From NCBI GenBank assembly GCA_025453925.1, contig JALOPK010000001.1:1-38804 (forward strand): a stretch of 38,804 nt of DNA. The letters are read 5' to 3'. Below are positions 2,579 to 33,654 of this stretch, piece after piece. Both the position numbers and the translations under genes were made by a program. Each line of letters begins with the position of its first letter. The stretch's first letter is position 1. A model generated the notes under the pieces. It ran no database searches, was not told the DNA's origin, and worked only from the letters and a program-made list of their open reading frames with translations. Source of the DNA: Candidatus Eiseniibacteriota bacterium (GTDB taxonomy: Bacteria; JAFGKV01).

Positions 2579-2859
2579 ACGTGACGCCGCATGCTCATCC
2601 CCCAGATCGTGGCATGGCCGCCCCTCGGGAGCGATCTGTCTCCTGCGAGCCATGGTGGCCCGTGGCAGCACCACTTCTTGGTGGCGCGGCCCGCGCTCCC
2701 GCGGTGGGTCCGGTTCGCTTGGCGATGCCGACATTACGTGCTCAGCCCGACGTCAGTGGACTCCACACGTACCGGTCGAGTGTAGCTCCGGGCAGACTTC
2801 CCGAGTTGCCCAGGTATGTGGCAAGACGGAAAGCCCGGACACCTCAGATTGCAGGCGTG

Positions 2860-8564: not shown

Positions 8565-9759
8565 ACGCGTCGAGTAGGCGCGAGATGTGCGTCTCGGTGG
8601 AGAAGGTTTCAATGACACGCTTGCGGCCGGCCCGGCCCATGTCTTCCGCCTCTTGCGGGGCCGACCAGAGTCTGCGGATGGCCGTGGCCAAAGCGGCCGG
8701 GTCTCCTGGCGGCACCAGCACTCCGTCCACACCGTCCTTCACCACGTCGGGGATGCCGCCGATTCCGCTCGCCACCACGGGCTTCCCCGCGACCCATGAC
8801 TCAAGGATGGAAATCCCAAAGACTTCATACCAGATCGACGGCAGCACTGTGAGACGGCATCCCGCAATGGTCCGCCCCAGCCGGTCGCCCGCCAGATGGC
8901 CGAGAAATCGGACATTATTGAGGCCGAGTTCCGTGGACAGGCGCTCAAGATCCTCGCGCACCGGACCCTCGCCTGCCACAAAGAGCGGCACTTCGGGCAG
9001 TAGCCGCATGGCGCGCAGCAGGATGGGCAGGCCTTTCTCCCGTGAGAGCCTCCCCGCGAAGAGGACATACGGGCCTGCCTCCGGTTCGAGGAGGCGCGGC
9101 GTCACCGGCGCGAAATAGGGGATAACGGTCACCTGCCCGGGGCTCAGACCAAAGTCGATGACCTTCTGACGAACGAAGGCGGTGGGCGCGATAAGCCGTC
9201 GAGCGAAACCCTGGAATGCACCAATTGTCCTGTGTGCCGTCATTTCCGCGGCCGCCAGCAGGCTCCATGACCAGGTGCCGAGACACCGATGCGCCACCGC
9301 CTGCCAGAACCGGCCGCCGCGGCACCGCTCACATGGCCTGCCGTCCGTGAACAGGAGGTAGTTCGGGCAGATGAGCTTGTAGTCATTCAAAGTCTGCACG
9401 ACGGGGATTCCCCGACGAGTCATGGGGGGCAGAATCGAGGGTGAGAGATGGTGATAGATGTTGAAGACGTGCACGATGTCAGGCGCGAACGCGTCAAGCA
9501 CCCGTTCCATTCGCCGTGCCCCCTCGCGATACCATATCACGCGCCCTGCCACGCCCCACCTCTGTCGGCTGGAGAGCTGCCGGAAGTCGATCTCCGGCGG
9601 AAACAGGTCGGCAAAGCGCGCGGGCTCGTTGCGCGGGTGCGCCATGGTAAAGGTCTCGACGGCGTGCCCACGGTCCTCCAAGGCCCGCTTCACGCTGAAC
9701 AAATAGCGTTCCGTGCCGGAACGCACGAATCCGTGCTTGTTGACCAGCAGCACTCTCAT
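8548..9759 (-). CDS. GT4-family (GT-B) glycosyltransferase
   Basis: Start MRVLLVNKHGF at 9759 forms an ATGA overlap with the stop of the upstream gene (9756-9759). The sequence LFAGRLSREKG...EVFGISILESWVAGKPVV is the E-x7-E region typical of group-1 glycosyltransferases. The upstream part of the 585-aa ORF lies inside the neighbouring gene and is Arg/Pro-rich. Confidence 0.85.
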   Translation of the reverse strand: MRVLLVNKHGFVRSGTERYLFSVKRALEDRGHAVETFTMAHPRNEPARFADLFPPEIDFRQLSSRQRWGVAGRVIWYREGARRMERVLDAFAPDIVHVFNIYHHLSPSILPPMTRRGIPVVQTLNDYKLICPNYLLFTDGRPCERCRGGRFWQAVAHRCLGTWSWSLLAAAEMTAHRTIGAFQGFARRLIAPTAFVRQKVIDFGLSPGQVTVIPYFAPVTPRLLEPEAGPYVLFAGRLSREKGLPILLRAMRLLPEVPLFVAGEGPVREDLERLSTELGLNNVRFLGHLAGDRLGRTIAGCRLTVLPSIWYEVFGISILESWVAGKPVVASGIGGIPDVVKDGVDGVLVPPGDPAALATAIRRLWSAPQEAEDMGRAGRKRVIETFSTETHISRLLDAYAALA

Positions 9760-10700
9760 GTTCGGTTCCTGACGCGAAGCATGGCGCCATGAACGATCCC
9801 GGCCATGGTCCCGATGTGAATCGTCGCCAGAATAGCCGGGACACGGTAGAAGGTTCGCCATGAGGGCGCGGCAAAGCAGCCGGCCCGGGCCTTCCGGATC
9901 AGATAGGCGGCGCCCAGCGCCACCATCGCGATCCAAGGCACCCAATGGCCCGTGACACACCCCGCACCGACGAGGGCGAGCCCCGCGGCGCTCTGGAGAA
10001 CCGTTCGGGAATGAAAGGTCCCGCTCGCACCCAGTTGACCCAGGCCGCGGGCATACTGATAGAACTGCCTCAATACCGCTCGGTATGTGGCCCGAGGTCG
10101 CCAGAGGACCGTGGCCGAAGGCCTGTGGGCGACGCCGCCGCAACGGGATGCGCGTTCGATGAACACGCCGTCTTCGGCGCGATTGAATGGGGGATGCTCG
10201 GGGAACCCACCAGCGGCCTCCCACGCCCAGCGGGGGAACGCAAGAGACCGGGCAGTCGGATTGACCGTCATGCCCGCGATCCGGATGTCGGGCGTGAGGG
10301 AACATCGGGCAACGCAGGCCTCGAAGTGCGTCGAAGGATTCGGAGTCACCCCTCCGATGACGAGGCCCAGAGCAGGATCATTCTCCAGGGGCGCCGCGAT
10401 TGCGGCGACCCATTCGCAGGACGGGATGCATCCGGCGTCGGTGACTGCGATGATTTCCGCTACGCTCGCGGCGATGCCGAGATTACGCCCGTGGGCAATA
10501 TCGGCACCCGGGGCTTCGATCACGTGAAGCCCGGGCACCTTGCCGCTTCGCTGCTTCGCGAGGGCCGGCGTGCCGTCCGTGGAACCCCCATCGACGATGA
10601 TCACTTGATCCGCGGGCCTGGTCTGGATCGAAAGGGCATCCAGCAGCGGCACGATGGATGACGCCTCGTTCCGCACGGTGACGACGACCGCCACGCGCAT
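9756..10700 (-). CDS. GT2-family glycosyltransferase with C-terminal transmembrane helices (GtrB/ArnC/DPMS-like architecture)
   Basis: 314 aa. The N-terminus MRVAVVVTVRNEASSIVPLLDALSIQTRPADQVIIVDGGSTDGT is a classic GT2 start. The C-terminal ~90 aa are hydrophobic (LALVGAGCVTGHWVPWIAMVALGAAYLI, VPAILATIHIGTMAGIV). Confidence 0.85.
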   Translation of the reverse strand: MRVAVVVTVRNEASSIVPLLDALSIQTRPADQVIIVDGGSTDGTPALAKQRSGKVPGLHVIEAPGADIAHGRNLGIAASVAEIIAVTDAGCIPSCEWVAAIAAPLENDPALGLVIGGVTPNPSTHFEACVARCSLTPDIRIAGMTVNPTARSLAFPRWAWEAAGGFPEHPPFNRAEDGVFIERASRCGGVAHRPSATVLWRPRATYRAVLRQFYQYARGLGQLGASGTFHSRTVLQSAAGLALVGAGCVTGHWVPWIAMVALGAAYLIRKARAGCFAAPSWRTFYRVPAILATIHIGTMAGIVHGAMLRVRNRT

Positions 10701-10701
10701 G

Positions 10702-11748
10702 TCATGCCCCCCAGAGCAAAAGGTAGTGCTGAGCCAGGGCCTCCCAGGTATGGGCCGCGGCGAAGCAATGGGCCTGTTCGAGCATCTGCGCAGACGGGCC
10801 TTGGGCGATCACACGGAGCGCCTGATCGGCGAATGTGGCGGGATCAGGCGCGGTAAGGAACAGCTCCGACGCCTGTGGCATGAGCTTGAGATAGTCCTCC
10901 TTGACCGGGTTGTGGTACACCGTAAAGAGAGGACGTCGCCGTACCATGGTCTCCAGCATGGAGAGATAGCCCGACGTGAGCACCAGGGTCGACGACTCGA
11001 TGATCGGTCCGGGGTCGGGGATGAACCCATGGAACGTGGCACGGATGCCCTCATCCCGCGCGAGTTGCTCCAGTGTCGCGCGCCAAGGACCGTCACCGCA
11101 GACGGTAAGAGGGATGTCGATCCCGTGATGGTTTCTCAAGAGTCCAAGGCCGCGAAGATAGATGTCCAACCCCGTGTCGGGCGCCAGCCTTCCGACAAAC
11201 GCCGCGCTATGGGCCTCGGGCGCGGCGGGCACCAGTTCCGGCGCGGTGCAGGCACCGTAGGTGACCACGGTCGGATGGATGCCCAACCATCGCACCAGGA
11301 AATGGCCGATGCACAGCGACCCCCGCGTCAGCCGCTCTGCCATGTCGTGGTAGAGCCTGGCGCGCCTCTGTACAGGGATGCGCATCTCATACCCGTGGTA
11401 GGTCATGAAGCGGGGACGATGAGACGACAGCGCCAGAGACGGGCCCGTCCAATGGAGAAGGCTGTAGACGCCATGGAAATGGATGATGTCCGCGTCCAGA
11501 AGAAGATGCCGATGGTCCATCCACCATCGCCATGCGGCGGGATAGCGAGCCCGGCCCGCGCGGGTGGGCATCCGGAACACCCGCGCGTCGGCCAGCGAGT
11601 CTTCGTCGGGCAGGCGTGGATCGTGCTTCGGGGCCACGAGGGTCAGTGTGATGCCGTGGGAGGCGAGCGAGGGAACAAGCCCCGTCATGTGCCGCTCGAC
11701 ACCGCCGATCGCCGGCGGCAACCGCTCAGCCACCATCAGGACGCGCAT
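10702..11748 (-). CDS. GT4-like (GT-B) glycosyltransferase
   Basis: Start MRVLMVAERLPPAIGGVERH at ATG 11748 overlaps the upstream gene by 23 nt. The longer 409-aa version would overlap by about 200 nt. The stop lies 1 nt before the next gene's ATG. The GT-B-like layout is AFVGRLAPDTG...CGDGP. Confidence 0.75.
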   Translation of the reverse strand: MRVLMVAERLPPAIGGVERHMTGLVPSLASHGITLTLVAPKHDPRLPDEDSLADARVFRMPTRAGRARYPAAWRWWMDHRHLLLDADIIHFHGVYSLLHWTGPSLALSSHRPRFMTYHGYEMRIPVQRRARLYHDMAERLTRGSLCIGHFLVRWLGIHPTVVTYGACTAPELVPAAPEAHSAAFVGRLAPDTGLDIYLRGLGLLRNHHGIDIPLTVCGDGPWRATLEQLARDEGIRATFHGFIPDPGPIIESSTLVLTSGYLSMLETMVRRRPLFTVYHNPVKEDYLKLMPQASELFLTAPDPATFADQALRVIAQGPSAQMLEQAHCFAAAHTWEALAQHYLLLWGA

Positions 11749-14700
11749 GATCTCCCGTTCTCCCCTCGGTGGCCTTGTCATTGACCAAGGCCCAGTACGC
11801 CTCTCGCACACACCCCCGGCGCGGGACCAGATGGCCGTGCTCATCCGGGACTCGATCCCCCGGGATACCCATCCTGCGATAGTTTCGCCTGGTCTCGGAG
11901 GCCATGAGGCCAAGAAGCCGGCGGGTCTCACCGCTGAGCGACCCGTCTTCCTGCAGGCTGGTTACTCCCATCGCGACGAGGCGCAATGCCGACGAGTAAT
12001 CGGCCTGACCATAGGCAGTGCGGGCGAGGCCGAGCAGCCGTTCGGCATAGGTCTGGGTCGGCATGAGGAGGAAGTGCGCCATGGCATACGACCGGGCGGC
12101 ATCAGGGATTCTGCCCGCCTGTTGTTGTGCCTGGGCGAGATCGTGCCAGACTTGCCACCAAGAACCGTCTGCCGGCACGCCCGGGTCCCAGGACAGCGCG
12201 GCCAACTCCAACTCGCGAATGGCCTCCTCCCGGCGACCCTGCAGGGTGAGGGAGGCAGCGAGGAGGGCGCGGGCCTTGGCTCCATCGGAGCCCGCCAGGC
12301 ATGCTCGAAGTATGTTCTCTGATTCTTCTGGCCGTTTCTGCCCGAGTGCGGCAATGCCCGCCAGTTTCTGCAGGTGAGCCCGCTCCCGGCTTCCGCCCGG
12401 AAGGCGATCCACGAGTGAAGAGAGAACGCGAAAGGCCTCTTCTGGGAGTCCCCACCGCTCATACACGGCGGCGACTCTCTCACCGTGGCGCATCGTCGTG
12501 ACGGCATCGTGCGCGTGAGCGCCGGCCATGTACCGAGAGGCGAGGAGCGAGAACCCGATGCTGCCGCCCGAGGTGCGCGGCTTTTCGGCCGCGGCCCCCT
12601 GTCCGGTATGTTGTTCGATGATGCTGACCATCCGCGCATCCAGGACGCCGTTCGCGGCGAAACGCTCGAAGGCGGCGGAGAGCCGTATCTGGTCGTTTTC
12701 GAGGACCCAGTCGATCGGATTGATTGGATCGGCTGAAAGCCCCATGGCTCGCAAGAAGCACGTTACGGCCTCGTCGCCGCGGCCCGTGGCGACATACGCA
12801 AGGGCGAGGTCGGACATATGCTCTCGGAAGTTGGGACCGACCCAGGTCGCCAGGGTCAGATCCTGTGCCCGCTGCGAGATGAAGGCCTCGGACAGGCTCC
12901 GGCCAAGGGTTTCGTCCTGGATGCGGACAGCCTCCTCGAAATGGCCCAGCGCCTCCTCGAGTCGTTGCTGGCCCCAGAGGCGCCATCCCAGACGCACGTG
13001 GTAAGCGGGATGCCGCGGCCTCAGGCGGCACGCATCCCGGTACCACCGGAGGGCGTCTGCATCCCCCGCCAGATCGCCCGACAGCGCCCGCAGCTCGGCA
13101 TTCAGGGGCATCAGGCGGCACGCCATTTCGATGCGCGCCGGCGACGCCGGTGGTGGTGGCATGCACTTGTCCGCCCCGATAGATGTCCTCACGAGAGTCC
13201 CCGCGAGCATCGGCCGGACCACGCACACCAGCATGACCGTGATCACTGTCAGACTCAGCACGAGTGGTCGCCCCCTGACGCTGCGCAACCTCTCTTCCCT
13301 CGCCTCGAGTGCAGGCAATGACCCTCCCGCCGGGGGGTTCAGCCTTACCGTTGCCGCCGCAAGGCCCAGCAGGAGCCAGAACTCCAAAGGAAGCAAAGAC
13401 GGCGCGCTCAGGCTCAACACGAGCTGGTGCGGAATCAACAGGGAAACCATGGCCGCTCCTATCGCGGCGAGGACTCCACGGACGGGCCCCGCTGATCGTG
13501 ACCATCCCCGCACCACCAGGACGGCAGCCGCGGCGACCATGCCCAGGAAGACGACGAGCCCCGCGGCGCCCGCGCTTTCGAACACCTGCAGGAATAGGTT
13601 GTGGGAATGCCATTGGCTGGCCGGGCTCGCTAGAGGATCCGGATAAGCCCCCGCCGCCCACGCCGCCTGGTTGGCATTGAGGCCCCGGGGCAGGGGGTCG
13701 TAGAACGCCATCACGGCCGGATCGCCAAGCCCGCGTCCAAGAAACGGCCTCCGGGAGACGGAATCGGCCACCATGCGCCACACATTCCGCCGCCAGGATG
13801 CCTCCTGCTGACCCCAGAGCGTCACCAAGGCCCCGGCGACGACAATGAGAGCCCCCGCAGTCACCAGCGCGGGCAGGACGCGGCGCCACGCACTCTGGCG
13901 CGACAGCGGTCCCCTTCGAGCCGCCCACCCCAGCACCGCCAGCCCCGCCAGAAGCCCGGCCGCAGCGGAACGCGAGTACGTGAGCATGAGAATGGGGGCC
14001 GAGAACACCGCCGCGCCATGGGCCAACCCGACTGCCCACCCGGCCTTCCTCACTAAAGCGAAGAGCGCCCCCAAGACTACGATCACCCCCGCGGCGGCCG
14101 CCACGGGGACGATGCCTCTCATCGCGGGAGCGGAAGGGAGCTGCACACCGGCTCGGGCGGCGAGCGACACCCCCACCGATGCCACTGCCGCCGCCGCAGC
14201 CACCCCGATGGTGATCCGGCCCCCGGGAGACCGTGCCCGGAGCGCGCCGAGGGCCAGTGTTATTATGGTTGCCGCGTAGATACCCACGGCATTGGGGTGC
14301 ATGGAGGCCATGCTGAGGCGGGCACGAAGTGCGGCGCCCGCTGATGCATGCTGCGCATAGTTCCACACCCCGTGCAGCCCCGCCACAGCGAGGACGACTG
14401 CCACGGTCAGCATGACTCGCACCGTTCGCGGCGGGGTGCCGGCGTCACGGCTTCGCGACAAAAGCACGAAGGCGAGCGCTCCGGTCCCGAGGCGCATCAG
14501 CATCTCCGCGCTGTAGTGGACATACTGCGCCGTCACCGTGGCCAGGAGGGCGCAGCCCAGGAAGAGCCCCGTCATGACCTCCACGGCCGCGATTTCCCGT
14601 ACCCGGACGCCGCTGTCCCTCCTGATGGGGAGGTGCGCGACGCCGACCAGCAAGATCCCGCTGAGCAGAAAAAAACGCTCATCACCGAGCGCGAAGAACC

Positions 14701-15109
14701 CGCCGTTGAGCGCACCGTACGTGACGGCCGCCCACACCGCCGCTTCAACCATGGAGATCCGGCTCAGTGACACCATCAACGCCATCGAACCGATGAGCCC
14801 GTAATGGAGCAGCCTGTAGTAGGGGCCGAGATGAGTCTGCCATACCGACTGCTGGGTCACGACCTCTGGCAGGGACGCGATGGCTGCGGCAGTGATGAGG
14901 GTTCCTGCCGTTCCCACTGCCGCCAGGCCCAACGTCCTGGAGAAATCGATCCGAAGGCCTCGAACCGCAGTGGTCAGAACGGCGGAGCCGATGATCAGGA
15001 CGGTCACGCCGACCAACTCGACGATCACGGCAGCAGGAAGCAACCGGGCATAGGTGGCGCATACCCCGATGAGAAGCACGCCGGGTACGCTTTCGATCGC
15101 ACCCCTCAT
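11726..15109 (-). CDS. Second Wzy_C-like polytopic membrane protein with C-terminal TPR-like domain (full-length paralogue of 5424-8564)
   Basis: 1127 aa. ATG 15109 overlaps the upstream stop as ATGA. Wzy_C-type blocks are LTYSRSAAAGLLAGL, GRGLGD and WHSHNLFLQVFESAGAAGL. The C-terminal repeats are collinear with the paralogue (YHVRLGWRLWGQQRLEEALGHFEEAVRIQD; MAHFLLMPTQTYAERLL versus NAHFLNMPSLAYAGQLL). Confidence 0.8.
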   Translation of the reverse strand: MRGAIESVPGVLLIGVCATYARLLPAAVIVELVGVTVLIIGSAVLTTAVRGLRIDFSRTLGLAAVGTAGTLITAAAIASLPEVVTQQSVWQTHLGPYYRLLHYGLIGSMALMVSLSRISMVEAAVWAAVTYGALNGGFFALGDERFFLLSGILLVGVAHLPIRRDSGVRVREIAAVEVMTGLFLGCALLATVTAQYVHYSAEMLMRLGTGALAFVLLSRSRDAGTPPRTVRVMLTVAVVLAVAGLHGVWNYAQHASAGAALRARLSMASMHPNAVGIYAATIITLALGALRARSPGGRITIGVAAAAAVASVGVSLAARAGVQLPSAPAMRGIVPVAAAAGVIVVLGALFALVRKAGWAVGLAHGAAVFSAPILMLTYSRSAAAGLLAGLAVLGWAARRGPLSRQSAWRRVLPALVTAGALIVVAGALVTLWGQQEASWRRNVWRMVADSVSRRPFLGRGLGDPAVMAFYDPLPRGLNANQAAWAAGAYPDPLASPASQWHSHNLFLQVFESAGAAGLVVFLGMVAAAAVLVVRGWSRSAGPVRGVLAAIGAAMVSLLIPHQLVLSLSAPSLLPLEFWLLLGLAAATVRLNPPAGGSLPALEAREERLRSVRGRPLVLSLTVITVMLVCVVRPMLAGTLVRTSIGADKCMPPPPASPARIEMACRLMPLNAELRALSGDLAGDADALRWYRDACRLRPRHPAYHVRLGWRLWGQQRLEEALGHFEEAVRIQDETLGRSLSEAFISQRAQDLTLATWVGPNFREHMSDLALAYVATGRGDEAVTCFLRAMGLSADPINPIDWVLENDQIRLSAAFERFAANGVLDARMVSIIEQHTGQGAAAEKPRTSGGSIGFSLLASRYMAGAHAHDAVTTMRHGERVAAVYERWGLPEEAFRVLSSLVDRLPGGSRERAHLQKLAGIAALGQKRPEESENILRACLAGSDGAKARALLAASLTLQGRREEAIRELELAALSWDPGVPADGSWWQVWHDLAQAQQQAGRIPDAARSYAMAHFLLMPTQTYAERLLGLARTAYGQADYSSALRLVAMGVTSLQEDGSLSGETRRLLGLMASETRRNYRRMGIPGDRVPDEHGHLVPRRGCVREAYWALVNDKATEGRTGDHARPDGG

Positions 15110-17043
15110 CGCCCGCTCCTTCCCGCCAGGTCCTCATACACGTGCGCCATGGTGGCCGCCACGGGCTCCCATGCGTAGCGGTCGCGAACCCTGGCCTGGA
15201 GCTGCCCGCCCATGGCCGTCACACCGGCAGGGTCATCCGCCAGGGCTTGTATCCGTGCGGCAAGATCGCCCTCATCACCCCGGCGGAATACATGGCCCAG
15301 ACCATCCAGGGCCTCCAGGTGGGGCGGGATGTCACTCGCAAGCACACACAATCCGTAACTCATCGCCTCGAGCAGCGCCAGCGGTAGACCCTCCACCTCC
15401 GACGCCGTGACAAAGAGATACGCATTGCTGAGGAGTTCCTCGAATACGGTGCCATACACGTATCCGGTGAACACGACGCGAGGATCCGTCGCCATGGCGT
15501 GAAGCCCGTCAACGTAGTCCTGACTGTGGCTCTCTCCGCCCGCAATCACAAGACGCTTATCCGTCGGCACTCGACCGAAGGCGCGGATGAGAAGCTCGAG
15601 CGACTTCTCGGGCACCAATCTCCCTACGCTCAGGATGAATGAACCCGGCTGGAGGCCCCACGCGCGTATGGCGTCCGCAGGGCGCCGCACCGGATCGTTC
15701 ACTCCGTTGGGGGCGTATACCGGATACCCGTGGTAGTGGTCCCGGTAGTGTGTCTCCAGCGCCCGGGACACCACTACCGTCCGATTTGGGAACCGGGCGG
15801 ATGCCCACTCACCTGCGCGGAGCACGGCGCGGGCGACGCGACCCCATTTCTGGCGCTGCCAATCGAGACCCTGCACGGTCACCACGACGCGTCGCCCGAA
15901 AACCCGAGGGAGCCACGCAAGCAGCGATGGACCCAATGCCTGGTAGTGAACGATGTCGTCCTCTTGAAAGAGGACATGCAGCGTGGAGAAGAGCGTGTGG
16001 GTGATGGCCTCAAGGTGCTTCGTGCGGATGCTGGGGAGGTGACGCAATTCCACGCCATGATAGGCGCGCCGCTGCGCGGTGTAGTGCGGCCGGCAGTACA
16101 CCGCGACCCGGAAGCCCTGCTTCGCCAGACGTGTGCTCAGCTCTTCCACCGAGCGCTCGACCCCCCCATACGTCGCCGGGATTCCCCGGGATCCGAGAAT
16201 GGCGATGCGCGGCTTCTCCAGGGGGTCAACCCGACGGTCGACGTGCTCCATCATGTCGGCGAGTAATGCATCACTCGCGGGAACCGTCCCGGGCTCGGGT
16301 GTCTTCACGGCCATGATCAGTTCGTCGAACTGATGCCGGGGCATGGCCCACCGGATGTCGGTGCCGGCGCACGTCCTCATCAGGTGGATAATCCAGGCCG
16401 GCGAGGAAGTTTCCCCGGCGATCCACACCACCCTCGCCCGCGTGCGGCCCATGGCGTCTGCCAGGCGCTCCATCGCCCCGGCATCAGCGGCCAGGCGCAG
16501 GTCACCCACCACGCGATCCCCGATCCATGGCTGGGTGGTGATCGCGTCGGCGAGCCGGGCCACAGCAGACTCCGACTCGAGGACCAGTACTCGGCGGACC
16601 CCGATGCCCCGCCGGACGAGGGCCTCTCCGAGGCGACCCGCAAGGATACGCCATACCGATACTCCGGCGTAGGTCATGACCCATCCCACGGACAGGCAGA
16701 GGCGGGAGTAGAGAAAGGGCGCATCGGCATTGTACGTGCCGAGCCTCAGGAGGTGGAGCGTGGAGACCACCAGGACCACGTTGATCAGCATGGCGCGCAG
16801 GAGCAGCACCGCCACCCGCCACCCCTCCGACCGCCGCGGCAACCGGTACCCACCGCAGAGGGCCAGGGCGCCTACCGCGATACATGCGCTAAGGAACGTG
16901 AGCAGGGCATACCTCGGCGCCCAAGGCACGATGCTCGCGAATAGCCCGGTGCGGAAGCGAAACAGGTAGGCAAGTCCGTGCGCGGCCACGACCGCGGCGA
17001 CGTCCCCGGCAATCAGCACCATGACGGCAGCGCGACCTCTCAT
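15106..17043 (-). CDS. Chimeric protein: WbaP-like N-terminal membrane + Rossmann-like module (aa 1-~275) fused to a DUF1972-type GT4 glycosyltransferase (aa ~278-645)
   Basis: 645 aa. ATG 17043 overlaps the upstream stop as ATGA. The N-terminus VLIAGDVAAVVAAHGLAYLFRFR is followed by about 4 helices and then RRVLVLESESAVARLADAI..GDRVVG. The C-terminal part, PRIAILGSRGIPATYGGVERSVEEL...ASEVEGLPLALLEAMSYG, is a group-1 GT with a DUF1972-like start. Confidence 0.8.
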   Translation of the reverse strand: MRGRAAVMVLIAGDVAAVVAAHGLAYLFRFRTGLFASIVPWAPRYALLTFLSACIAVGALALCGGYRLPRRSEGWRVAVLLLRAMLINVVLVVSTLHLLRLGTYNADAPFLYSRLCLSVGWVMTYAGVSVWRILAGRLGEALVRRGIGVRRVLVLESESAVARLADAITTQPWIGDRVVGDLRLAADAGAMERLADAMGRTRARVVWIAGETSSPAWIIHLMRTCAGTDIRWAMPRHQFDELIMAVKTPEPGTVPASDALLADMMEHVDRRVDPLEKPRIAILGSRGIPATYGGVERSVEELSTRLAKQGFRVAVYCRPHYTAQRRAYHGVELRHLPSIRTKHLEAITHTLFSTLHVLFQEDDIVHYQALGPSLLAWLPRVFGRRVVVTVQGLDWQRQKWGRVARAVLRAGEWASARFPNRTVVVSRALETHYRDHYHGYPVYAPNGVNDPVRRPADAIRAWGLQPGSFILSVGRLVPEKSLELLIRAFGRVPTDKRLVIAGGESHSQDYVDGLHAMATDPRVVFTGYVYGTVFEELLSNAYLFVTASEVEGLPLALLEAMSYGLCVLASDIPPHLEALDGLGHVFRRGDEGDLAARIQALADDPAGVTAMGGQLQARVRDRYAWEPVAATMAHVYEDLAGRSGR

Positions 17044-18221
17044 GCGGGCTCGCCTTCGTCTCTCGATGTGGCATCGCGGAGTGTGTGGCCGCCGGCACTG
17101 GCGACGGGGCGGCTTCGGAGGGCCGGATCATCGGGCGGGGACATCCGGAGGGGCGACCATACCCATTTCGTTCCGCGCTCGGCGCCGACGCGCCAGTAGA
17201 GAGGCCGGCCGGCCGTGAGGGCACCCATCCGGTCAGGGAGAATGCAGTGCTCCTGCTGCACAATCCCGCCGGCACCGAAGAGGAAGGCGGGATCCGGTGA
17301 GATCTCGACGCGGTAGGAGGTTGCTCCCGGCACCGGACTCCACTGCAACGCACGAGTCTCGTGGTGTTCCTGCGACCCTGCGGGGCTGGTGGTTCGGCGC
17401 GCATTGCGGCGTGAGGCAAGCCACCATAGCAGCCTCGTCGCCGGATCCGCACGGTCTGCCAGATACCGCAGACCGCTCCGGTAGAGGTGGTCCTCACCTC
17501 GGGAGGGCGTCCTGCCCACCGTTCCTCCAACCCGATGAACCATGCCGCTCTTCGGTACGACGCAGAGCTTCCATCCCCTCCCCCTCAGGCGGTCCGACAG
17601 ATCGACGTCCTCGAAGAAGATGAAGAAGCGTTCATCGAATCCGCCCACTTCCTCGAAGGCCGAGCGTCGCACCAGGAATCCGGCACCCGAGAGATAGGGC
17701 ACCTCCGCAGGGTCGTCTCCGAACCACACCGCGCGGTGCCAGCGCTGGTATGGTGGTGTGAACCGGGCACCCGTGCCAAGGCGTCTCAGGATCATCCGCC
17801 AGAAGAGGAACGTGAGCAACGTGGGAGGAACCGGGACCACGCTCCATTGCCAATTCAAGCGCGCATCAACCCACTGCCGGGGCCCCACGGCGCCAAGGTT
17901 TGGCGCGGACGCCAGATGATCCGTGAGGGTGCGGAGCGCACCAGGCAGGAAGTATGCGTCGGGGTTCAGAAAGAGCAGGAATGGCGCTCTCCCCATGGCG
18001 GCGCCCTGGTTGCACGCCGCCGAGAACCCCCTGTTCGCGGTGTTCACGAACAACTGGGCGCCCGGGGCGGCATTGCGCACCACGTCGGCTCCGCCATCTG
18101 TGGAAGCATTGTCCACGACGATGATCTCCACCCCCGGCTCCCGCATGATCGAATCGAGGCAGGCGCCAATCCAGCCGGCGTCGTCGTGGATGAGGATGAC
18201 TACTGTGACGAGTGGATCCAT
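17040..18221 (-). CDS. GT2-family glycosyltransferase (rhamnosyltransferase-like core) with a ~100-aa C-terminal extension
   Basis: 393 aa. The start is MDPLVTVVILIHDDAGWIGACLDSIMREPGVEIIVVDNASTDGG. FFEDVDLSDR is an ED-x-DL block. The C-terminal LQWSPVPGATSYRVEISPDPAF...LYWRVGA resembles an FN3-like module. Confidence 0.85.
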   Translation of the reverse strand: MDPLVTVVILIHDDAGWIGACLDSIMREPGVEIIVVDNASTDGGADVVRNAAPGAQLFVNTANRGFSAACNQGAAMGRAPFLLFLNPDAYFLPGALRTLTDHLASAPNLGAVGPRQWVDARLNWQWSVVPVPPTLLTFLFWRMILRRLGTGARFTPPYQRWHRAVWFGDDPAEVPYLSGAGFLVRRSAFEEVGGFDERFFIFFEDVDLSDRLRGRGWKLCVVPKSGMVHRVGGTVGRTPSRGEDHLYRSGLRYLADRADPATRLLWWLASRRNARRTTSPAGSQEHHETRALQWSPVPGATSYRVEISPDPAFLFGAGGIVQQEHCILPDRMGALTAGRPLYWRVGAERGTKWVWSPLRMSPPDDPALRSRPVASAGGHTLRDATSRDEGEPA

Positions 18222-18228
18222 GATGAGA

Positions 18229-19665
18229 CTACGGGGACTTCACTGACGAGTGAGCATGCACGCCGCTGAAGATGGAGACGGCACCCAGAAGCTGAAGCGT
18301 CACGACATACCCCGCCGTCGCGGGAACGAGCGCCACCCAGAATGTCGTCCCGTCAAGGAGAGCATACACTGCCGCAGCCACCAGAGCAGCGAAGGCGGGG
18401 CGCGCCGCTGTCTTTGCCAGCGGTCGTTTGGCTGGCCCAAGAAGATCTCTGATCCACCACGTCCTCACCACCAAGCTGAACACGGCCCCTCCGCACGCTG
18501 CCCAGGCGGCGCCGATCTGTGCCCCTCCCGGGATAAGGAGCCCGCACAACACCGTCTTGACCACGGCCTCCGCGCCCGCTACGGCGACGAATGCCCCGAT
18601 TCCCCTGCGGGAAATGATGACGATCATCAGCACGGGGCCGGAGAGGACCGTGGCGACCAGGGACCATGCGAGGATACGGAGAACGCTCGCCGCCGGCAAA
18701 TAGACCTCGCCAAGCAGCAGGCCGATGATTGACTCGGCCCCGAATGACAGCGTGACTGCCAGTCCGAAGACCACCAGCGCGAACGCGTTCAGGGCGTCAT
18801 TGTAGCCGCGGGCCGCCACCTCCGGAGACTCCTGCCACCGGGCCGAAAGAAACGGAAAGAGGGCACCCAGGGCGCTCATCCGCAAAATGCCGGCGTACTC
18901 GATGAGTCGCAAGCCGGGCATGTAGAGGCCGACCGCCTCGGCGCCTGACAGCCTGGCGAGGAGCAACACATCCACCCGCCTCATGGCAAGATCCAGAACA
19001 CTGAGGGCGAACAATACGAATCCGTCGCGAAGCAACGCGCTCATGGCCGGCCGGGAAGGGAGACCCGCCAGCGGAGTGACACGCCGATGCACAAGGAGAA
19101 CGAGCGCGCACGCCTCCAGCGAGACAGAGGCAACCTGGAGTGCCACCAGCGCGCGCACGCGGGCGCCTGAAAGGACGAGGATGATGCCGGCAGCCGCGGT
19201 CGTCATCGACACTGCGATCCGAAACACCCCCAGCGTCGTCATGCGCTCGAACGCCCGCGCGATGGCCTCGGCCAGTCCCTGGATCGTGGCCCCCACGAGG
19301 ATCGCCCCTGTGAGCCAGAGGAGGGATTTCATCTGCGGACCATAGCCGGCTACCGACGCAGCCACGGGCAGGAGCGCCCAGACCAGGAGCGCCACGGGCA
19401 CCGTGAGAGCGATTCCGCTGAACAGGTACCGTCCCGCTCTCTCCCGGTGCTGAGCCACGTCTCGGATGATCACCTGAGGGAACCCCATCAGACTGATCGT
19501 GCGGGCGAACAGCGCGAAGGTCATGGCGATCGAGTAGAGCCCGAAATCGGCGACCCCGAGGCGGCGGGCGGCCACGGCGACGAATGCCAAGTTGGCCATC
19601 TGCACGCACAGCTCCGCCCCGGACAAGACCGCAGTATTGCCTAGAAGCCTCCGGGATTCGGTCAC
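18229..19665 (-). CDS. wzx: Wzx-like polysaccharide flippase (MOP superfamily)
   Basis: Polytopic protein. LLGNTAVLSGAELCVQMANLAFVAVAARRLGVADFGLYS is typical of a Wzx N-terminus. The ORF is open to a TTG at 19797. GTG 19665, preceded by GGGGGGAG, gives a canonical-length N-terminus. The start is uncertain. Confidence 0.75.
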   Translation of the reverse strand: MTESRRLLGNTAVLSGAELCVQMANLAFVAVAARRLGVADFGLYSIAMTFALFARTISLMGFPQVIIRDVAQHRERAGRYLFSGIALTVPVALLVWALLPVAASVAGYGPQMKSLLWLTGAILVGATIQGLAEAIARAFERMTTLGVFRIAVSMTTAAAGIILVLSGARVRALVALQVASVSLEACALVLLVHRRVTPLAGLPSRPAMSALLRDGFVLFALSVLDLAMRRVDVLLLARLSGAEAVGLYMPGLRLIEYAGILRMSALGALFPFLSARWQESPEVAARGYNDALNAFALVVFGLAVTLSFGAESIIGLLLGEVYLPAASVLRILAWSLVATVLSGPVLMIVIISRRGIGAFVAVAGAEAVVKTVLCGLLIPGGAQIGAAWAACGGAVFSLVVRTWWIRDLLGPAKRPLAKTAARPAFAALVAAAVYALLDGTTFWVALVPATAGYVVTLQLLGAVSIFSGVHAHSSVKSP

Positions 19666-19822
19666 ATCTCCCCCCGGCGGACTTCGATGGCGGTTCGTTC
19701 GCGGGGAAGTCGCGTCTCTCTCCCACTGCCTGCGGGGGAGATCACCGCCATCGCAACGGATCCTGCGCACCCCCGGGGTGCCGAACCGCCGGGGCAAGAG
19801 GGCACAGAACTGCTCGTTCGCA

Positions 19823-20776
19823 TCAGGGCTTGCCTATGGGCACGCCGTCCGGGCTCATCGCCTCCAGGAGGCAGGCGAGATCCACACATCGGGTTCGCTG
19901 GATACCGCGGCGGGCACGGAGCGTGGCACCCATCCGAAGGAACGCCTCGCAATAGCCGCGAAACGCCGCCCCCCGATGGGGAGCATGCCGGAGTGCCGCC
20001 GCCCATGTGTGCCCGATACCCCCGAGGCGAGGCTTGATGAGTCCCCACGGCATGTTCTTCAGGTACACCGTGACCCGGTTCCGGTACACCAGTCTCATCT
20101 GAGCGCTCGATCCCCGGCCGAACGTGGCACTCCGGTCGTGATGAACCACGGCATCAGGGACATAGACGCAGCGGTGTCCCAGGAGTCGGGCGCGGAATCC
20201 GAAGTCGATGTCATCGCTGTAGATGAAAAGGCTCTCATCGAGCGAGCCCACACGCTCGAAGACTCCCCTTCGGTAGATCGATGCCGCACCGGTCGCGGTG
20301 AAGACCTCACACGGGGTATCAAACGCGGGTCCATCCGGTTCTCCGTGACCCCGCATGATGCCTCCGATCAGAGGATCGAAGGCGTCGCCCGCGGAGTCGA
20401 TCCGGCGTGGATCGGAGGCAAGGAGGAGCCGGCACGCCGCGAATGAGAACACCGGCGCCTCCTCCAGCGCAGACTGCAGCGCCTCCAACCATGTCGGGGT
20501 GGGATAGGCATCACTGTCCAGAGTGACGATGAAATCTCCCGAGGCCGCCTTGACCCCCGCGTTCACGCCGCCTGACGTGCCGAGGTTACGCGGGAGTCGA
20601 ACCACTTTCACCCAAGGATACTCCCCGCGCATGGTCTTCACCGTGTCGTCGCTGGACGCATTGTCCACCACGATTATCTCTTCCGGCCGCCGCGTCTGAC
20701 TGGCAAGGCGTTGGAGGCACCGCCTGAGCCGTGGCAGTGCGTTCCAGGTCGGGATGACTACCGAGACGGACGCCAT
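19823..20776 (-). CDS. GT2-family glycosyltransferase
   Basis: 317 aa with ATG at 20776. Supporting blocks are MASVSVVIPTWNALPRLRRCLQRLASQTRRPEEIIVVDNASSDDT, TLDSDAY and YSDDIDFGFRARLLG. Confidence 0.85.
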   Translation of the reverse strand: MASVSVVIPTWNALPRLRRCLQRLASQTRRPEEIIVVDNASSDDTVKTMRGEYPWVKVVRLPRNLGTSGGVNAGVKAASGDFIVTLDSDAYPTPTWLEALQSALEEAPVFSFAACRLLLASDPRRIDSAGDAFDPLIGGIMRGHGEPDGPAFDTPCEVFTATGAASIYRRGVFERVGSLDESLFIYSDDIDFGFRARLLGHRCVYVPDAVVHHDRSATFGRGSSAQMRLVYRNRVTVYLKNMPWGLIKPRLGGIGHTWAAALRHAPHRGAAFRGYCEAFLRMGATLRARRGIQRTRCVDLACLLEAMSPDGVPIGKP

Positions 20777-20866
20777 GGTTGGGTCTGGTGCGGCAGGCGG
20801 CCGCTCCCGCCGGGATAGCCGGCCCGCGTCGGAGGCCTGGTGGAGGGGGCATTCACCGAGGTTCCC

Positions 20867-22303
20867 CTATTCAGCGAACATGGATCGGCCATCCATGTAA
20901 CGGGGAACGGCCTCATCGAGCGCGTGGAGCACGGTCGGCGCCACATCCATGATTGAGACGCATGCTTCACGCAAGGCGCCACATCCCGGCCCCCGGGCGT
21001 AGAGCACGCCCACGGGGCGATGACTTCCCCGATTCTCCACGGAGTTCGCCGTCGCCTCCAGGGAGGACCGAATCGTGAACTGGCCCATGAGGCGAATCCC
21101 CTCATCATGGGGCATAAGGAGCATGTCGGGCGCCCCGGCTGCATGGAGCCCGGCGTAGATGTCATCCCGTGGGACCACCGCCCTTAGCAACGGACTGCCC
21201 TCGTCGTCACGGCAGGCGAGGAGATCGTCGGCCAGCCTGACGCTCAGGTCTCTCTGCTCCGTCCCGGTCGTGATCACGCCATCCGGTTCGCGCCCCTTAA
21301 TGTTGAGCCAGAGCCCGGGACATTCTACGTAGAGCCCGCCGAACGCGCGGGTCCTCCGCCAATCCACCCTGAGCCGCGGAGGGCCGAGCTCTACCCGGGG
21401 CCGCCACCCCCTTGCAGGACGTCGCAGGCGTCTCACGCGAAGCTTGTGGCCGCGATGGAGACGGAGAAACCCGTGCTCGCGGAGCCAGACGTTGACATGA
21501 AACAGATGGCGGCATGGACCGAAACCGTGGTCAGACATCACGATGACCGTCGTCTCGGACCCGGTGGCCTCGAGCAACCGACCCAGCGTCGCGTCCAACG
21601 TCTCGTATGCTGCTTCAACGGCCGCGCCGGGCTCCCCACCGGGCGCACCTTCCGTCTCCCTGGCCTCTGTCTCACCCCAGAGCATGTGTTGGACCTTGTC
21701 GGCCAAGGTGAACACCACCATGAAGAGGTCCCATTGCTCCTGCCCCAAGAGCCAGAGTGCCGCGTCGCGTCTCGCCGCATGTCTCCGCGCGAGTTGCGCG
21801 CTCAGGTGGCCGGCGTCGAGCGTGTCGAGGTCGCCAAAGCCGTCCGCCTGGTAGTCGGGAATTCGCGTGCGCAAGTGATCGGCCACCGCAGCGGGAAATG
21901 TGAAGTCGGATCGCATTCCCGGAGTGGGCAAACCGGTCACCATTACCCCGTTCACCGGTCGGGGGGGAAACGTCAGCGGCACGTTCAGGGAGCAGACCCG
22001 GCGCCCGCGTCGGCTGAGTATCTGCTCCAGGGTTGCCGCGCCGATGTCCGCGCTGCTCACCAGTGGCCATTCATAGCCCGAACGGCGCCAGAACCCGAAC
22101 GCGCCGTGTTTCCCCGGGTTCACGCCCGTTCTGCAACTCGTCCACGCAGGGGCGGAGTTGGCCGGGAATGTTGACTGAAGACGCCCCGCGCAGCCCTCCG
22201 CCATGAGCCGCGCGAGGACCGGAAGCCGACGGGCATTCACCATTCGGTCGGCGACAGCCGGCTCGAGACCGTCGAGGCCGACCAACAGGACCCGGGCTCC
22301 CAT
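20867..22303 (-). CDS. Alkaline-phosphatase superfamily protein, NPP/type I phosphodiesterase-like, with no signal peptide
   Basis: 478 aa. Supporting blocks are MGARVLLVGLDGLEP (metal Asp), FPANSAPAWTSCRTGVNPGKHG (nucleophile loop), VIVMSDHGFG (DH codons 21527-21532) and GSHRPVGVL. Confidence 0.8.
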   Translation of the reverse strand: MGARVLLVGLDGLEPAVADRMVNARRLPVLARLMAEGCAGRLQSTFPANSAPAWTSCRTGVNPGKHGAFGFWRRSGYEWPLVSSADIGAATLEQILSRRGRRVCSLNVPLTFPPRPVNGVMVTGLPTPGMRSDFTFPAAVADHLRTRIPDYQADGFGDLDTLDAGHLSAQLARRHAARRDAALWLLGQEQWDLFMVVFTLADKVQHMLWGETEARETEGAPGGEPGAAVEAAYETLDATLGRLLEATGSETTVIVMSDHGFGPCRHLFHVNVWLREHGFLRLHRGHKLRVRRLRRPARGWRPRVELGPPRLRVDWRRTRAFGGLYVECPGLWLNIKGREPDGVITTGTEQRDLSVRLADDLLACRDDEGSPLLRAVVPRDDIYAGLHAAGAPDMLLMPHDEGIRLMGQFTIRSSLEATANSVENRGSHRPVGVLYARGPGCGALREACVSIMDVAPTVLHALDEAVPRYMDGRSMFAE

Positions 22304-22306
22304 TGC

Positions 22307-23806
22307 CTACCCCAGATACCCCAGAGCCCGCAGATGTGCCTCCACACCTTGCCGCTCGACGGCGGACAGTTCCTGCGCTGCAGAGCGGGGCAGACCATCG
22401 GGCGAGGCAACTACACGAACAGGATGATCCCGCAACCAAGAGTCATCAAACAGCTCCGTCGCCACCGTTCCTTCCATGTGGCCGGGCACCGGCACACCGA
22501 GGATATGGAGAACAGTCGGTGCGATATCCGTGAGCCGCATGGGCACCGCATCCCCATCCCCGGCGCAATCCCCGGCCAGAGCCAGCACTCCTCCGCCGAT
22601 CATATGGAACTCACCTTCCGGAGCCGGACCCATCACCGAGCTGGCATCCAGGGAAGGGCATGTCGCGATTCCCTCGTCGGCCGGCTCAACTACCAAGTCA
22701 GGCAAAGGGATCAGGCCGGGCCCGGCAGACAGGTTCTCGCGGATCAAGACATTGCCCACGGCCGGCAGATCGGCGATGCTGTCCCGGATGAATCTCGCGC
22801 GGGCGGCGCGATCAGTGAGAGGCGCCCGGGAAGCATCGCTTCCCACAGGTGCCCCGGATCTCCCCCCGCATGAGAGAAAGACCCCGGCGTCGTCGGCAAG
22901 GGCCGCCGTCCGTTTCCCGTCTACGCCGCGGCGTTGCCCGAGTTCTCCGGGGAGTGCGCACTGCTCCATCAAGAAACGGCACGCCGACGAGTCCCGCCTC
23001 GACAACCGCCGCAGCGCGCGCCGCGCCGTGCCGGATGGAGAAAGCCGGAGCAAACCCTGTTGTTCCAGCCAGGCATTGAGGTGAAGATGGCTTCGCACCG
23101 TCGCGGCGTGTGTTGGCGACACCAGCAGCAGTGCCCGCGCGGGTATCTCCGAGATCAACAGGCGAAGGAGGGCGTCGAGCCCGTCCGGCATCCCGGGCGT
23201 TGCACCGGTTCGCGCGCGGGAGCCACGCGCCCGCCTCGCCCCGGCAAGATGCCGAAAGCCAATGGCGATGAGGTCACTGTCCTGCTGGTCCCGCATCCAG
23301 CGCACCATGCGGATGACCCCCTCTGCGCGGCGAACGCCTTCAGTGGTCTCAACGGAGGCCAGGGTTGCCCGGTCCGAGGGCGGCATCGCCTCCCACAGCC
23401 CCCGCGGGAAGCTGTCCCATGGGTCGGGAGGCATGGTCAATGCCACGCCGTTGATGGCCGCCGGCGGCCAGGTGAGTGGAACGCCCACCGCCGCCACCCG
23501 CAGGCCTGCTTCCCCGGCGACGGCAAGGAGGCTGGGGAACGCCAGCCGCCAGATCGAAGGGCCCGCGCGCTCCGGGCCCCCGTCCACACTCCGCCCTCCC
23601 CACACCCCGTGGGCGGATGGCTCGACACCCGTGTGCACCGTGGCCCAGGCCGCCGCCTGGCTGCGGGCGAGACCGGCCGAAAAGATGCCCTGAGAGCCTC
23701 CATCGAGGAATGGGCGGAGGGCGGGCTGGCCCGCGCGGCGTTCCGCGTTGCCGACGGACGAGGGAGTCAGCCCTTCCGTTGCGAGTACGATGACCGGAGA
23801 ACCCAC
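22307..23806 (-). CDS. Paralogue of the NPP-like protein with substituted metal-ligand motifs (possible pseudoenzyme)
   Basis: GTG 23806 aligns residue-for-residue with Met1 of the downstream paralogue (VGSPVIVLATEGL versus MGARVLLVGLDGL). The upstream part of the 575-aa ORF is Arg-rich junk. D becomes E in ATEGL, and SDHG becomes SPTH (nt 23108-23119). The stop lies 3 nt before the next ATG. Confidence 0.7.
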   Translation of the reverse strand: MGSPVIVLATEGLTPSSVGNAERRAGQPALRPFLDGGSQGIFSAGLARSQAAAWATVHTGVEPSAHGVWGGRSVDGGPERAGPSIWRLAFPSLLAVAGEAGLRVAAVGVPLTWPPAAINGVALTMPPDPWDSFPRGLWEAMPPSDRATLASVETTEGVRRAEGVIRMVRWMRDQQDSDLIAIGFRHLAGARRARGSRARTGATPGMPDGLDALLRLLISEIPARALLLVSPTHAATVRSHLHLNAWLEQQGLLRLSPSGTARRALRRLSRRDSSACRFLMEQCALPGELGQRRGVDGKRTAALADDAGVFLSCGGRSGAPVGSDASRAPLTDRAARARFIRDSIADLPAVGNVLIRENLSAGPGLIPLPDLVVEPADEGIATCPSLDASSVMGPAPEGEFHMIGGGVLALAGDCAGDGDAVPMRLTDIAPTVLHILGVPVPGHMEGTVATELFDDSWLRDHPVRVVASPDGLPRSAAQELSAVERQGVEAHLRALGYLG

Positions 23807-24218
23807 TATGGAGTCCCGCGCGCAACAGAGAGAGGCGAGGCCACTGGTTCGCCGGGCATTCCCACTTCCGCGGGACGGTTCTCGCAGGATTTCAGGATCA
23901 TCCGTCGTTGAGAGTGCCGGTGATCGGCGTTCCCGCCGACCGGTCGTGAGAGGAATGGATCGGCGCGGCGTGGCGGCACACCCGTCTCTGTGAAGAGGAA
24001 CGGCTGCCCGCCCTTCAAATGCGGCGCACAGCATTCCGTTTCGTCACGGACTCGGTGCACATGCGTGGGGCGAGCCGTTCTGGTCGCCGGAATCGCGCGC
24101 CCGCCCCGCTGAGAGAACGAAGTTGAACGGGCCGCCCGCATACCACGGGAGCCCCTCGGTGGGGAAACCGCCCGGCCGACGCCCTGCCGCGAGATCACTG
24201 GCCGCCGCGATCCAGGTA

Positions 24219-33651: not shown

Positions 33652-33654
33652 CGG

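Follow-up and report, generated by a model that had tools for sequence, protein, structure and literature searches.

A conserved glycosyltransferase family in which the membrane and Rossmann-like module of large phosphoglycosyltransferases is fused to a GT4 domain

The large monotopic phosphoglycosyltransferases (Lg-PGTs), the most abundant class of phosphoglycosyltransferases (PGTs), carry a bundle of four transmembrane (TM) helices and a PF13727 domain; the roles proposed for them so far are dimerisation and feedback of uridine nucleotides on the PGT (PMC10942596). This module, consisting of four TM helices together with a domain of unknown function (4TMH-DUF), is known on PGTs and also on PglF-like dehydratases (PMC10942596). 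The glycosyltransferases GacB, SccB and WchF, which combine a DUF1972-type start with a glycosyltransferase family 4 (GT4) domain, are membrane-associated and add the second sugar to N-acetylglucosamine (GlcNAc)- or glucose (Glc)-diphosphate-undecaprenol (PP-Und), the GlcNAc-PP-Und acceptor of GacB depending on a separately encoded wecA (PMC6802508). Here we describe a protein in which parts resembling both kinds of enzyme are joined, encoded at positions 15106-17043(-) of a 38,804-nucleotide stretch of DNA from a Candidatus Eiseniibacteriota bacterium (assembly GCA_025453925.1, contig JALOPK010000001.1, positions 1 to 38,804), referred to below as the window. Its N-terminal module (N-module) is homologous, by sequence and by fold, to the non-catalytic N-terminus of Lg-PGTs such as WbaP, and a GT4 domain stands where the PGT catalytic domain would be expected. 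GT4 is a third, previously undescribed catalytic partner of the 4TMH-DUF module, a combination for which full-text literature searches on PF13727 and Lg-PGT fusions returned no description.

In the list of open reading frames (ORFs) the fusion gene starts with ATG and encodes 645 amino acids (aa) plus a stop codon. The same product was called by NCBI for this contig (P0263), and at least 50 homologues of the same length and architecture support the extent of the gene. The JGI gene call (P0001) is 569 aa long and starts from a GTG at codon 77 (codons 1-77 correspond to 16813-17043), a version that would drop the first two TM helices and mask the Lg-PGT-like architecture in domain searches. The long start is favoured because D14, R29, Y66 and P69 are conserved throughout the family. 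At both ends the gene is translationally coupled to its neighbours, as read from the sequence: in an ATGA at 17040-17043(-) the fusion start codon shares bases with the stop of the upstream family 2 glycosyltransferase (GT2) gene (17040-18221), and a second ATGA at 15106-15109(-) overlaps the fusion stop with the start of the downstream gene (11726-15109), which encodes a Wzy_C protein with tetratricopeptide repeats (TPR).

In AlphaFold2 (AF2) models the chain runs from four N-terminal TM helices into a Rossmann-like alpha/beta domain (residues 150-247) and then through a short helical linker into a C-terminal GT-B domain, and the full-length model forms one confident body (predicted local distance difference test score, pLDDT, 90.3; predicted template modelling score, pTM, 0.89), confidence being maintained through the linker. 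The four-helix bundle takes up residues 1-144 (16612-17043(-)), as delimited by AF2, a hydropathy scan and the alignment to WbaP residues 10-~140. It is followed by the cytoplasmic, Rossmann-like domain known in Lg-PGTs as PF13727 or 'DUF', at residues 146-247 (16303-16608(-); PF13727 match, AF2 and shared positions), and by a family-specific linker of residues 248-278 (16210-16302(-); AF2 and alignment), composed of a variable loop and a helix at 258-267. The GT4 part begins with the acceptor-side Rossmann lobe, residues 279-~455 (15679-16209(-)), which bears the motifs GSRGIPATYGGVE and QGLDWQR and is recognised by PF13439, PF09314 and Foldseek, and ends with the donor-side lobe, residues 456-645 (15109-15678(-)), recognised by PF00534 and its motifs. 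Along the protein the peptide IAGDVAAV is found at residues 11-18, RRVLVLESESAVARL at 150-164, GDRVVG at 175-180 and PRIAILGSRGIPATYGGVERS at 278-298.

The first-pass annotation of the window, made from the sequence alone, had proposed a WbaP-type membrane and Rossmann N-module followed by a DUF1972-like GT4 instead of a PGT catalytic domain, and both parts of this proposal are borne out. For the N-module, the NCBIfam model TIGR03025 (EPS_sugtrans) matches residues 14-246 with its positions 3-232 of 445 (E 6.9e-14) and TIGR03023 (WcaJ) matches residues 14-231 with its positions 3-222 of 453 (E 8.5e-12); these alignments end mid-way through the models, and the PGT models are therefore matched in their front half only. 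PF13727 itself is weak in the query (residues 78-183, E 1.8e-3, 18.7 bits for a cut-off of 25), and is called in most of the fusion homologues. By itself the N-module is too divergent for a word-indexed search, which gave no matches. Compared with the PDB, a profile of the N-module built from 20 sequences matched WbaP chains only (E 3e-8, WbaP residues 10-213), and an exhaustive HMMER search with it among 1.84 billion representative proteins recovered 6582 matches at E<=1e-3, with the fusion family ranked first and mostly 460-500-aa proteins thereafter. When 141 of the top matches were classified with a locally built hidden Markov model (HMM), 109 proved to carry a PGT catalytic domain and 4 more were GT4 fusions, the remaining 28 being short fragments. 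The fold agrees with the sequence matches. The AF2 model of the isolated N-module (pLDDT 89.1) had a single significant Foldseek match in the PDB, S. enterica WbaP (8T53_A; E 1.9e-4, TMq 0.58, 248 columns). For some short proteins of 145-290 aa (P0121, P0125, P0126, P0127 and P0132) the match to the fusion-type N-module is stronger (E 1e-54 to 1e-31) than for any PGT; these may be N-modules that stand alone, or else fragments from contig ends.

Within the N-module, TM helices are predicted at residues 2-31, 42-62, 74-98 and 114-144 by AF2 and the hydropathy scan, with block-mean pLDDT mostly of 84-97 in the bundle and dips in the loops (72 at residues 31-40 and 59 at 101-110). An N-in/C-in topology is predicted from the Arg-rich loops at 63-73 and 132-151. 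Alternating beta/alpha elements run from E150 to H247 in the modelled Rossmann-like domain. The fusion family and the Lg-PGTs have in common D14, R29, G64, Y66, S113, R114, R132, G146, the G156 column, G175, G180 and P236, while P69, W121, G136, W173, W207 and W232 are specific to the fusions; W173 and R132 are invariant in the family and W207 and W232 are conserved at about 90% or more. Also, the loop between the third and fourth TM helices of the fusions has an insertion of 8-9 residues relative to Lg-PGTs, and the 'IVGxG' motif of the Lg-PGTs is reduced to 'IVGxxxxA', its second Gly not being conserved. At the first Gly of GxG, which is Gly in 94% of the fusion family and 99% of the Lg-PGTs, the query has Glu (E156, codon at 16576-16578), and this orthologue may have lost any nucleotide binding in its cap domain.

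The homology to PGT models stops at residue 246 according to NCBIfam, and after about residue 247 the Lg-PGTs and the fusions carry mutually exclusive linker insertions. In WbaP, a domain-swapped beta-hairpin (N251-Q268) makes most of the dimer interface (PMC10942596). This hairpin is not universal among Lg-PGTs, being also missing from EpsZ (PMC12802240). The AF2 model of the fusion has no hairpin and shows a conserved helix at 258-267 instead, so that a family-specific helix appears, in the models, to replace both the beta-hairpin and the entry to the catalytic domain of Lg-PGTs. Since the hairpin is missing and GxG is degenerate, WbaP-style dimerisation and uridine-nucleotide sensing cannot be assumed for the fusions. 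WbaP-style behaviour of the cap looks doubtful for the same reasons.

The C-terminal module spans residues 279-645 and is a complete GT4/GT-B glycosyltransferase, covered by Pfam over residues 280-632. PF00534 matches residues 468-605 (E 2e-22, 80 bits), PF13439 residues 292-449 (E 5e-15, 56 bits) and PF13692 scores 82 bits. The match to PF09314/DUF1972 (E 6e-9, 36 bits for a cut-off of 25) has its best stretch over 46 residues only (280-325). In contrast, PF02397 (Bac_transf) had no match in the fusion protein in Pfam, nor did a local HMM of the PGT catalytic domain, and the Pfam search gave no match to PF02719 (Polysacc_synt_2, the short-chain dehydrogenase/reductase (SDR) dehydratase domain) either. 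Thus, of the Pfam families which had been put forward for a HMMER check at first pass, PF09314 and PF00534 match, PF13727 stays below threshold in the query and PF02397 is not found. The Cps2T model NF046071 aligns along nearly its whole length (residues 280-631 to model positions 4-379 of 384, E 3.6e-26), with a score of 91.9 bits against an equivalog cut-off of 500, which places the protein outside the WchF/Cps2T-GacB equivalog; NCBIfam also returns a GlcNAc-PG synthase match. Among the 50 Foldseek matches listed for the full-length model only GT4 structures occur (E 1e-18 to 1e-12), including GlgM, SPS, BshA, HepE, MshA and PglA (E 1e-18 to 1e-14, TMt ~0.75-0.8), with PimA also matched.

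The catalytic motifs of GT4 enzymes are in place, namely GRLVPEK at 474-480 and an EX7E formed by E551 and E559 (nt 15367-15393). Among 46 members of the fusion family R475, K480 and E551 are invariant and E559 nearly so, and in the acceptor-side lobe G284, G287, P289, G294, E296 and D394 are invariant. Comparison of the GT4 domain with stand-alone and tandem orthologues yielded 67 shared identical columns conserved at 90% or more. No column is conserved on both sides with differing residues, and the motifs GSRG.PA.YGG.E, GLDW, GRLxPEK and EX7E are intact and common to the stand-alone orthologues. Judged by these conserved columns, the GT4 domain would be functionally indistinguishable from its orthologues encoded beside Lg-PGTs.

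The same domain order, which the first-pass annotation had suggested searching for in other genomes, is shared by at least 50 independent sequences with identities of 35-55%. A full-length search brought up dozens of such proteins of ~640-650 aa, which align to 90-99% of the query with 38-55% identity. The N-module was confirmed by BLAST in about 50 of the 120 proteins listed. The family belongs mostly to Anaerolineae/Chloroflexota, from where its named members come, and its database entries are named 'glycosyltransferase' only. Both halves carry invariant or near-invariant positions. A neighbour-joining (NJ) tree unites the 52 fusion N-modules in a single clade, outside which fall the N-modules of 109 Lg-PGTs (bootstrap 64/100), with mean identities of 0.33 within the fusion family and 0.20 to the PGTs, which points to an old, single fusion event; this single origin is read from the N-module tree only, at that bootstrap value. 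In NJ trees of the GT4 domain the fusions do not form one clade, being interspersed with 17 stand-alone sequences. Acidobacteriota have the orthologous GT4 joined to another GT4 (tandem proteins of ~800 aa such as P0047, P0088 and P0109, from loci among L009-L086, e.g. L011, L029 and L058). This GT4 type is fused to different partners in different phyla.

The fusion gene is part of a same-strand operon (8548-24034(-)) in which Pfam scans identify two PF01663 phosphodiesterases, a GT2, Wzx, a second GT2, the fusion, Wzy_C-TPR, a GT4, a GT2 and a GT4, with a second Wzy_C-TPR gene (5424-8732(-)) continuing the operon to 5424. The fusion is the sole membrane-integrated glycosyltransferase of this operon. 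Genes for amino-sugar and uronic-acid nucleotide sugars lie near it; an rmlABCD set was not recognised in the window, where a generic epimerase/dehydratase only was found (36493-37515). The gene order is the same in locus L001 (GCA_900174595.1). Besides these two, nine further fusion loci were annotated, and the block GT4-GT2-GT4-fusion recurs in seven of them (L003-L006 and L088-L090), in one case (L006) together with Wzx and Wzy; L087 has its fusion gene apart from any operon of this kind, and that of L002 is close to a contig end. The accompanying trio (GT4 of ~350 aa, GT2 of ~315 aa and GT4 of ~405 aa) travels with the fusion. In most loci it is directly upstream of the fusion gene, and in the window (8548-11931) and L001 its place is downstream of Wzy. 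This recurrence suggests a conserved four-transferase core.

No stand-alone initiating enzyme had been noticed in the locus at first pass, and dedicated searches agree. The HMM of the PGT catalytic domain, which recovered 109 PGTs as a positive control, found none in the six-frame translation of the 38.8-kb window (best E 0.82), and neither PF02397 nor PF00953 was found in Pfam scans of its sizeable ORFs. Around the fusion genes of 12 other loci the HMM likewise found no PGT, in a survey that reached +/-10 kb on long contigs and covered ~245 kb around 13 fusion genes, and the precomputed Pfam tables of the other fusion loci hold no PF02397 or PF00953. The loci retrieved for comparison are mainly non-fused (78 of 80), the search patterns of the full-length alignment having all fallen in the GT4 half. 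There, a PGT occurs within 10 kb of the stand-alone or tandem (GT4-GT4) orthologue in 53 of 78 loci, and in 50 of the 61 with full flanks, usually 3-5 kb upstream of it on the same strand. This pattern holds in metagenome-assembled genomes of Acidobacteriota, Eisenbacteria, Dormibacterota, Bacillota and Binatia. Since orthologues are usually near an Lg-PGT, this GT4 type works in PGT-initiated pathways. The difference between fusion and non-fused loci gives Fisher p values of 3e-5 to 7e-6 (7e-6 with 0/12 vs 53/78), without phylogenetic correction and confounded by phylum. The fusion loci are mostly from Chloroflexota and the non-fused ones mostly from Acidobacteriota, and the contrast may simply reflect gene organisation at the phylum level.

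The explanation that we favour, and consider reasonably probable, is that the fusion is a membrane-anchored GT4 acting at an early, probably the committed, step of a pathway whose initiating PGT is encoded elsewhere. The protein would be an integral-membrane glycosyltransferase facing the cytoplasm, which would act early, most likely as the second or committed enzyme, on the polyprenyl-diphosphate-linked repeat unit of a Wzx/Wzy-type polysaccharide. Its N-terminal 247 residues would be inherited from a large monotopic PGT in which a GT4 took the place of the Bac_transf catalytic domain, leaving as a remnant the four-helix membrane stalk and the cytosolic Rossmann-like cap. This remnant would keep the GT-B enzyme at the inner membrane face, where the lipid-linked acceptor sits, and the initiating transfer of a sugar-1-phosphate would fall to a PGT whose gene lies in another part of the genome. 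Wzx and Wzy act on polyprenyl-diphosphate-linked units, and GT-B/GT4 chemistry moves a sugar and not a sugar-phosphate, so that it cannot make such units. An early transferase with a separate PGT is favoured because the GT4 is unchanged from its orthologues and the operon has both Wzx and Wzy. The first-pass annotation had suggested that the fusion tethers the first committed transferase to the initiation machinery; such tethering is compatible with the evidence and close to the explanation given here, in which the anchor would be the membrane.

Several points weigh against this explanation. The likeness to Cps2T/WchF is distant (92 vs 500 bits), so that the exact step, donor and acceptor would not be fixed by it. 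The conserved Trp and Gly residues of the cytosolic cap suggest a role beyond anchoring, and the surveyed surroundings of the other fusion genes, like the window, are devoid of a recognisable PGT.

The same distance from the Cps2T equivalog is what gives room to a GT4 acting at a later step or on a different target, such as a longer lipid-linked oligosaccharide or a membrane glycolipid, with the N-module as an inherited anchor only. GT4 enzymes include the lipid-directed PimA matched by Foldseek and the GlcNAc-PG synthase matched in NCBIfam, and in several loci the fusion comes last in the GT4-GT2-GT4-fusion block, although gene order says nothing on the step catalysed. We nevertheless regard this as unlikely, given that the best full-length family match is of the Cps2T/DUF1972 type, whose characterised members use monosaccharide-PP-Und, and that the conservation in the cap, with W173 and R132 invariant and the other two Trp residues nearly so, goes beyond the needs of a simple anchor.

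Alternatively, the N-module could serve docking. The stalk and cap might pair the fusion with a genuine Lg-PGT or with another membrane protein of the pathway, e.g. Wzx, in a heterodimer or higher assembly, and Und-PP-monosaccharide would then be passed directly to the committed-step transferase. The 4TMH and DUF parts form a dimer interface in WbaP (PMC10942596), and the N-module retains residues shared with the Lg-PGTs (D14, R29, Y66, S113-R114, R132, G175 and G180). However, the beta-hairpin that forms most of that interface is absent, with the family-specific helix in its stead, and no Lg-PGT lies near any of the 13 fusion genes, which makes a hand-off of this kind rather improbable.

It is also conceivable that, with a GT4 put in place of its catalytic domain, the Lg-PGT of a Chloroflexota operon became an initiation-site protein needing no PGT in the cluster. 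The protein would then either prime the glycan on a membrane lipid by glycosyl transfer of its own or be an indispensable half of a split initiation complex, with a housekeeping PGT brought in via stalk and cap; this we consider quite improbable. Still more so is initiation without any PGT, with the fusion itself starting the glycan on a membrane lipid and replacing the ancestral Lg-PGT function. The observations that could be read in this sense are the lack of a PGT in all 13 fusion loci as opposed to its presence in 53 of 78 non-fused ones, and the position of the fusion as the only membrane-integrated transferase of its operon. Yet the former may be a matter of phylum-level organisation, and a cluster without a PGT has a precedent in the wecA-dependent GlcNAc-PP-Und used by GacB (PMC6802508). 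Moreover, the 67 identical columns are shared with orthologues from PGT-containing loci, none being conserved but different, GT-B enzymes of the GT4 type transfer no sugar-phosphate, and the Wzx and Wzy_C of the operon imply polyprenyl-PP-linked substrates. The suggestion made at first pass of a new kind of initiation module is thus unsupported, with EX7E and GRLxPEK kept as in the orthologues. Lastly, the idea that two genes were artificially united near nt 16210, through misassembly or a frameshift, which the first-pass annotation had named as a possible objection, has a negligible probability and is refuted by the comparative data: at least 50 sequences, drawn from assemblies of NCBI, JGI, ENA and Logan, have the same continuous architecture, an alignment of 46 homologues of independent assembly shows the frame running through the junction, composition shows no break and AF2 is confident across the linker, while the 569-aa JGI call, the one item in its favour, concerns the start codon and not the junction.

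Other genes of these regions deserve mention. The two Wzy_C/O-antigen-ligase proteins of the window are very large and end in C-terminal TPR arrays (5424-8732(-), 1102 aa; 11726-15109(-), 1127 aa), and the pair is conserved in the syntenic L001 (11929-15195 and 18395-21385). The genes for PF01663 type-I phosphodiesterases/nucleotide pyrophosphatases (20867-22303(-) and 22307-24034(-)) recur, often paired, beside fusion operons (window, L001, L004 and L006), where they could serve in phospho-modification of the glycan or in nucleotide turnover. Two adjacent genes, 260-2578(+) (772 aa) and 2575-5232(+) (885 aa), encode proteins with an N-terminal extension of ~320-440 aa followed by a sulfatase/alkaline-phosphatase-superfamily domain; in a crude scan each extension has one hydrophobic segment, and the proteins look LtaS/EptA-type. 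A protein of 348 aa that consists almost wholly of ankyrin repeats (30677-31723(+), Ank_2 E 5e-84), unusual for a bacterial polysaccharide region, is encoded beside sugar-nucleotide genes. Further on, an ABC exporter (ABC_membrane + ABC_tran, 618 aa), an S26-like peptidase and an NTP_transf_5 protein occur together at 31795-35939(-). A similar exporter of ~610 aa flanks L003 and L088. The exporter of the window could act as a flippase in the manner of PglK, or it could export peptides and be unrelated. Two overlapping ORFs, 24219-25601(-), whose start is uncertain, and 25417-26577(-), are without Pfam or NCBIfam match; one has a lipoprotein-type signal (MRRLLILLVAGCS) and the other looks secreted and beta-rich. 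Neither has TM segments, and as their appearance is that of a lipoprotein and of a secreted protein, they were rejected as candidates for a hidden initiator. Sulfotransferase arrays are found in several fusion loci (L003, 395-7773; L004, 103-1014; L005, 1-3634; L088, 209-7704; L089, 2875-3792) and therefore point to sulfated polysaccharides in uncultured Chloroflexota. The family also flags polysaccharide loci of this phylum, some of them rich in sulfotransferases, in which the initiating enzyme would lie outside the cluster.

The long retention of the 4TMH-DUF module after the exchange of a PGT for a GT4 domain shows that it has a function independent of PGT catalysis, and the domain exchanged in is a transferase of the type which normally acts next in the pathway. 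The existence of three unrelated catalytic partners argues for a general membrane or pathway-organising role of the module, even if the surprise is lowered because it was already known as portable between PGTs and dehydratases resembling PglF. The fusion family is a natural construct with which anchoring, dimerisation and nucleotide sensing can be separated from PGT chemistry.

Among described systems the closest are the Lg-PGTs (WbaP, WcaJ, CpsE and EpsZ; TIGR03025/TIGR03023), whose four-helix bundle and PF13727 domain are homologous to those of the fusion and which, like it, are found in Wzx/Wzy polysaccharide operons. They differ from it in their Bac_transf catalytic domain, with a re-entrant helix and an Asp-Glu dyad, which the fusion lacks and in place of which it has the GT4, as well as in the cap, where the fusion has a degenerate GxG and conserved Trp residues of its own (W121, W173, W207 and W232). 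The NDP-sugar 4,6-dehydratases of the PglF, Cap5D and WbpM type, which are anchored in the membrane, provide the precedent for a 4TMH-DUF module on a non-PGT catalytic domain (PMC10942596). Their catalytic part belongs to the SDR dehydratases and works on soluble UDP-sugars, whereas the GT-B domain of the fusion is expected to use a lipid-linked acceptor, and the nearest relatives of its N-module are Lg-PGTs and not dehydratases (109 of the 141 classified top matches). The bifunctional monoPGTs (Bi-PGTs), whose PGT catalytic core is joined to a glycosyltransferase or a domain that modifies sugars, resemble the fusion in uniting consecutive pathway functions in one membrane protein (PMC10942596), but they keep the PGT core, which is absent from the fusion and sets it apart from this class, while the fusion keeps the accessory domains only. 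Tandem GT4-GT4 proteins of Acidobacteriota (~800 aa, P0047 and P0088) have a C-terminal GT4 orthologous to that of the fusion (45-50% identity); their N-terminal partner is a soluble GT4 rather than a membrane module, and they are usually encoded 3-5 kb downstream of an Lg-PGT. Finally, the beta-1,4-rhamnosyltransferases GacB/SccB and WchF (Cps2T), which take Rha from dTDP-Rha in the committed second step, share with the GT4 half of the fusion the GT4/GT-B fold, a DUF1972-type N-terminal motif and the full-length alignment to the Cps2T model. Unlike the fusion, they are peripheral proteins of ~385 aa with a short hydrophobic N-terminus only, and at 92 vs 500 bits their donor sugar and acceptor may differ from those of the fusion.

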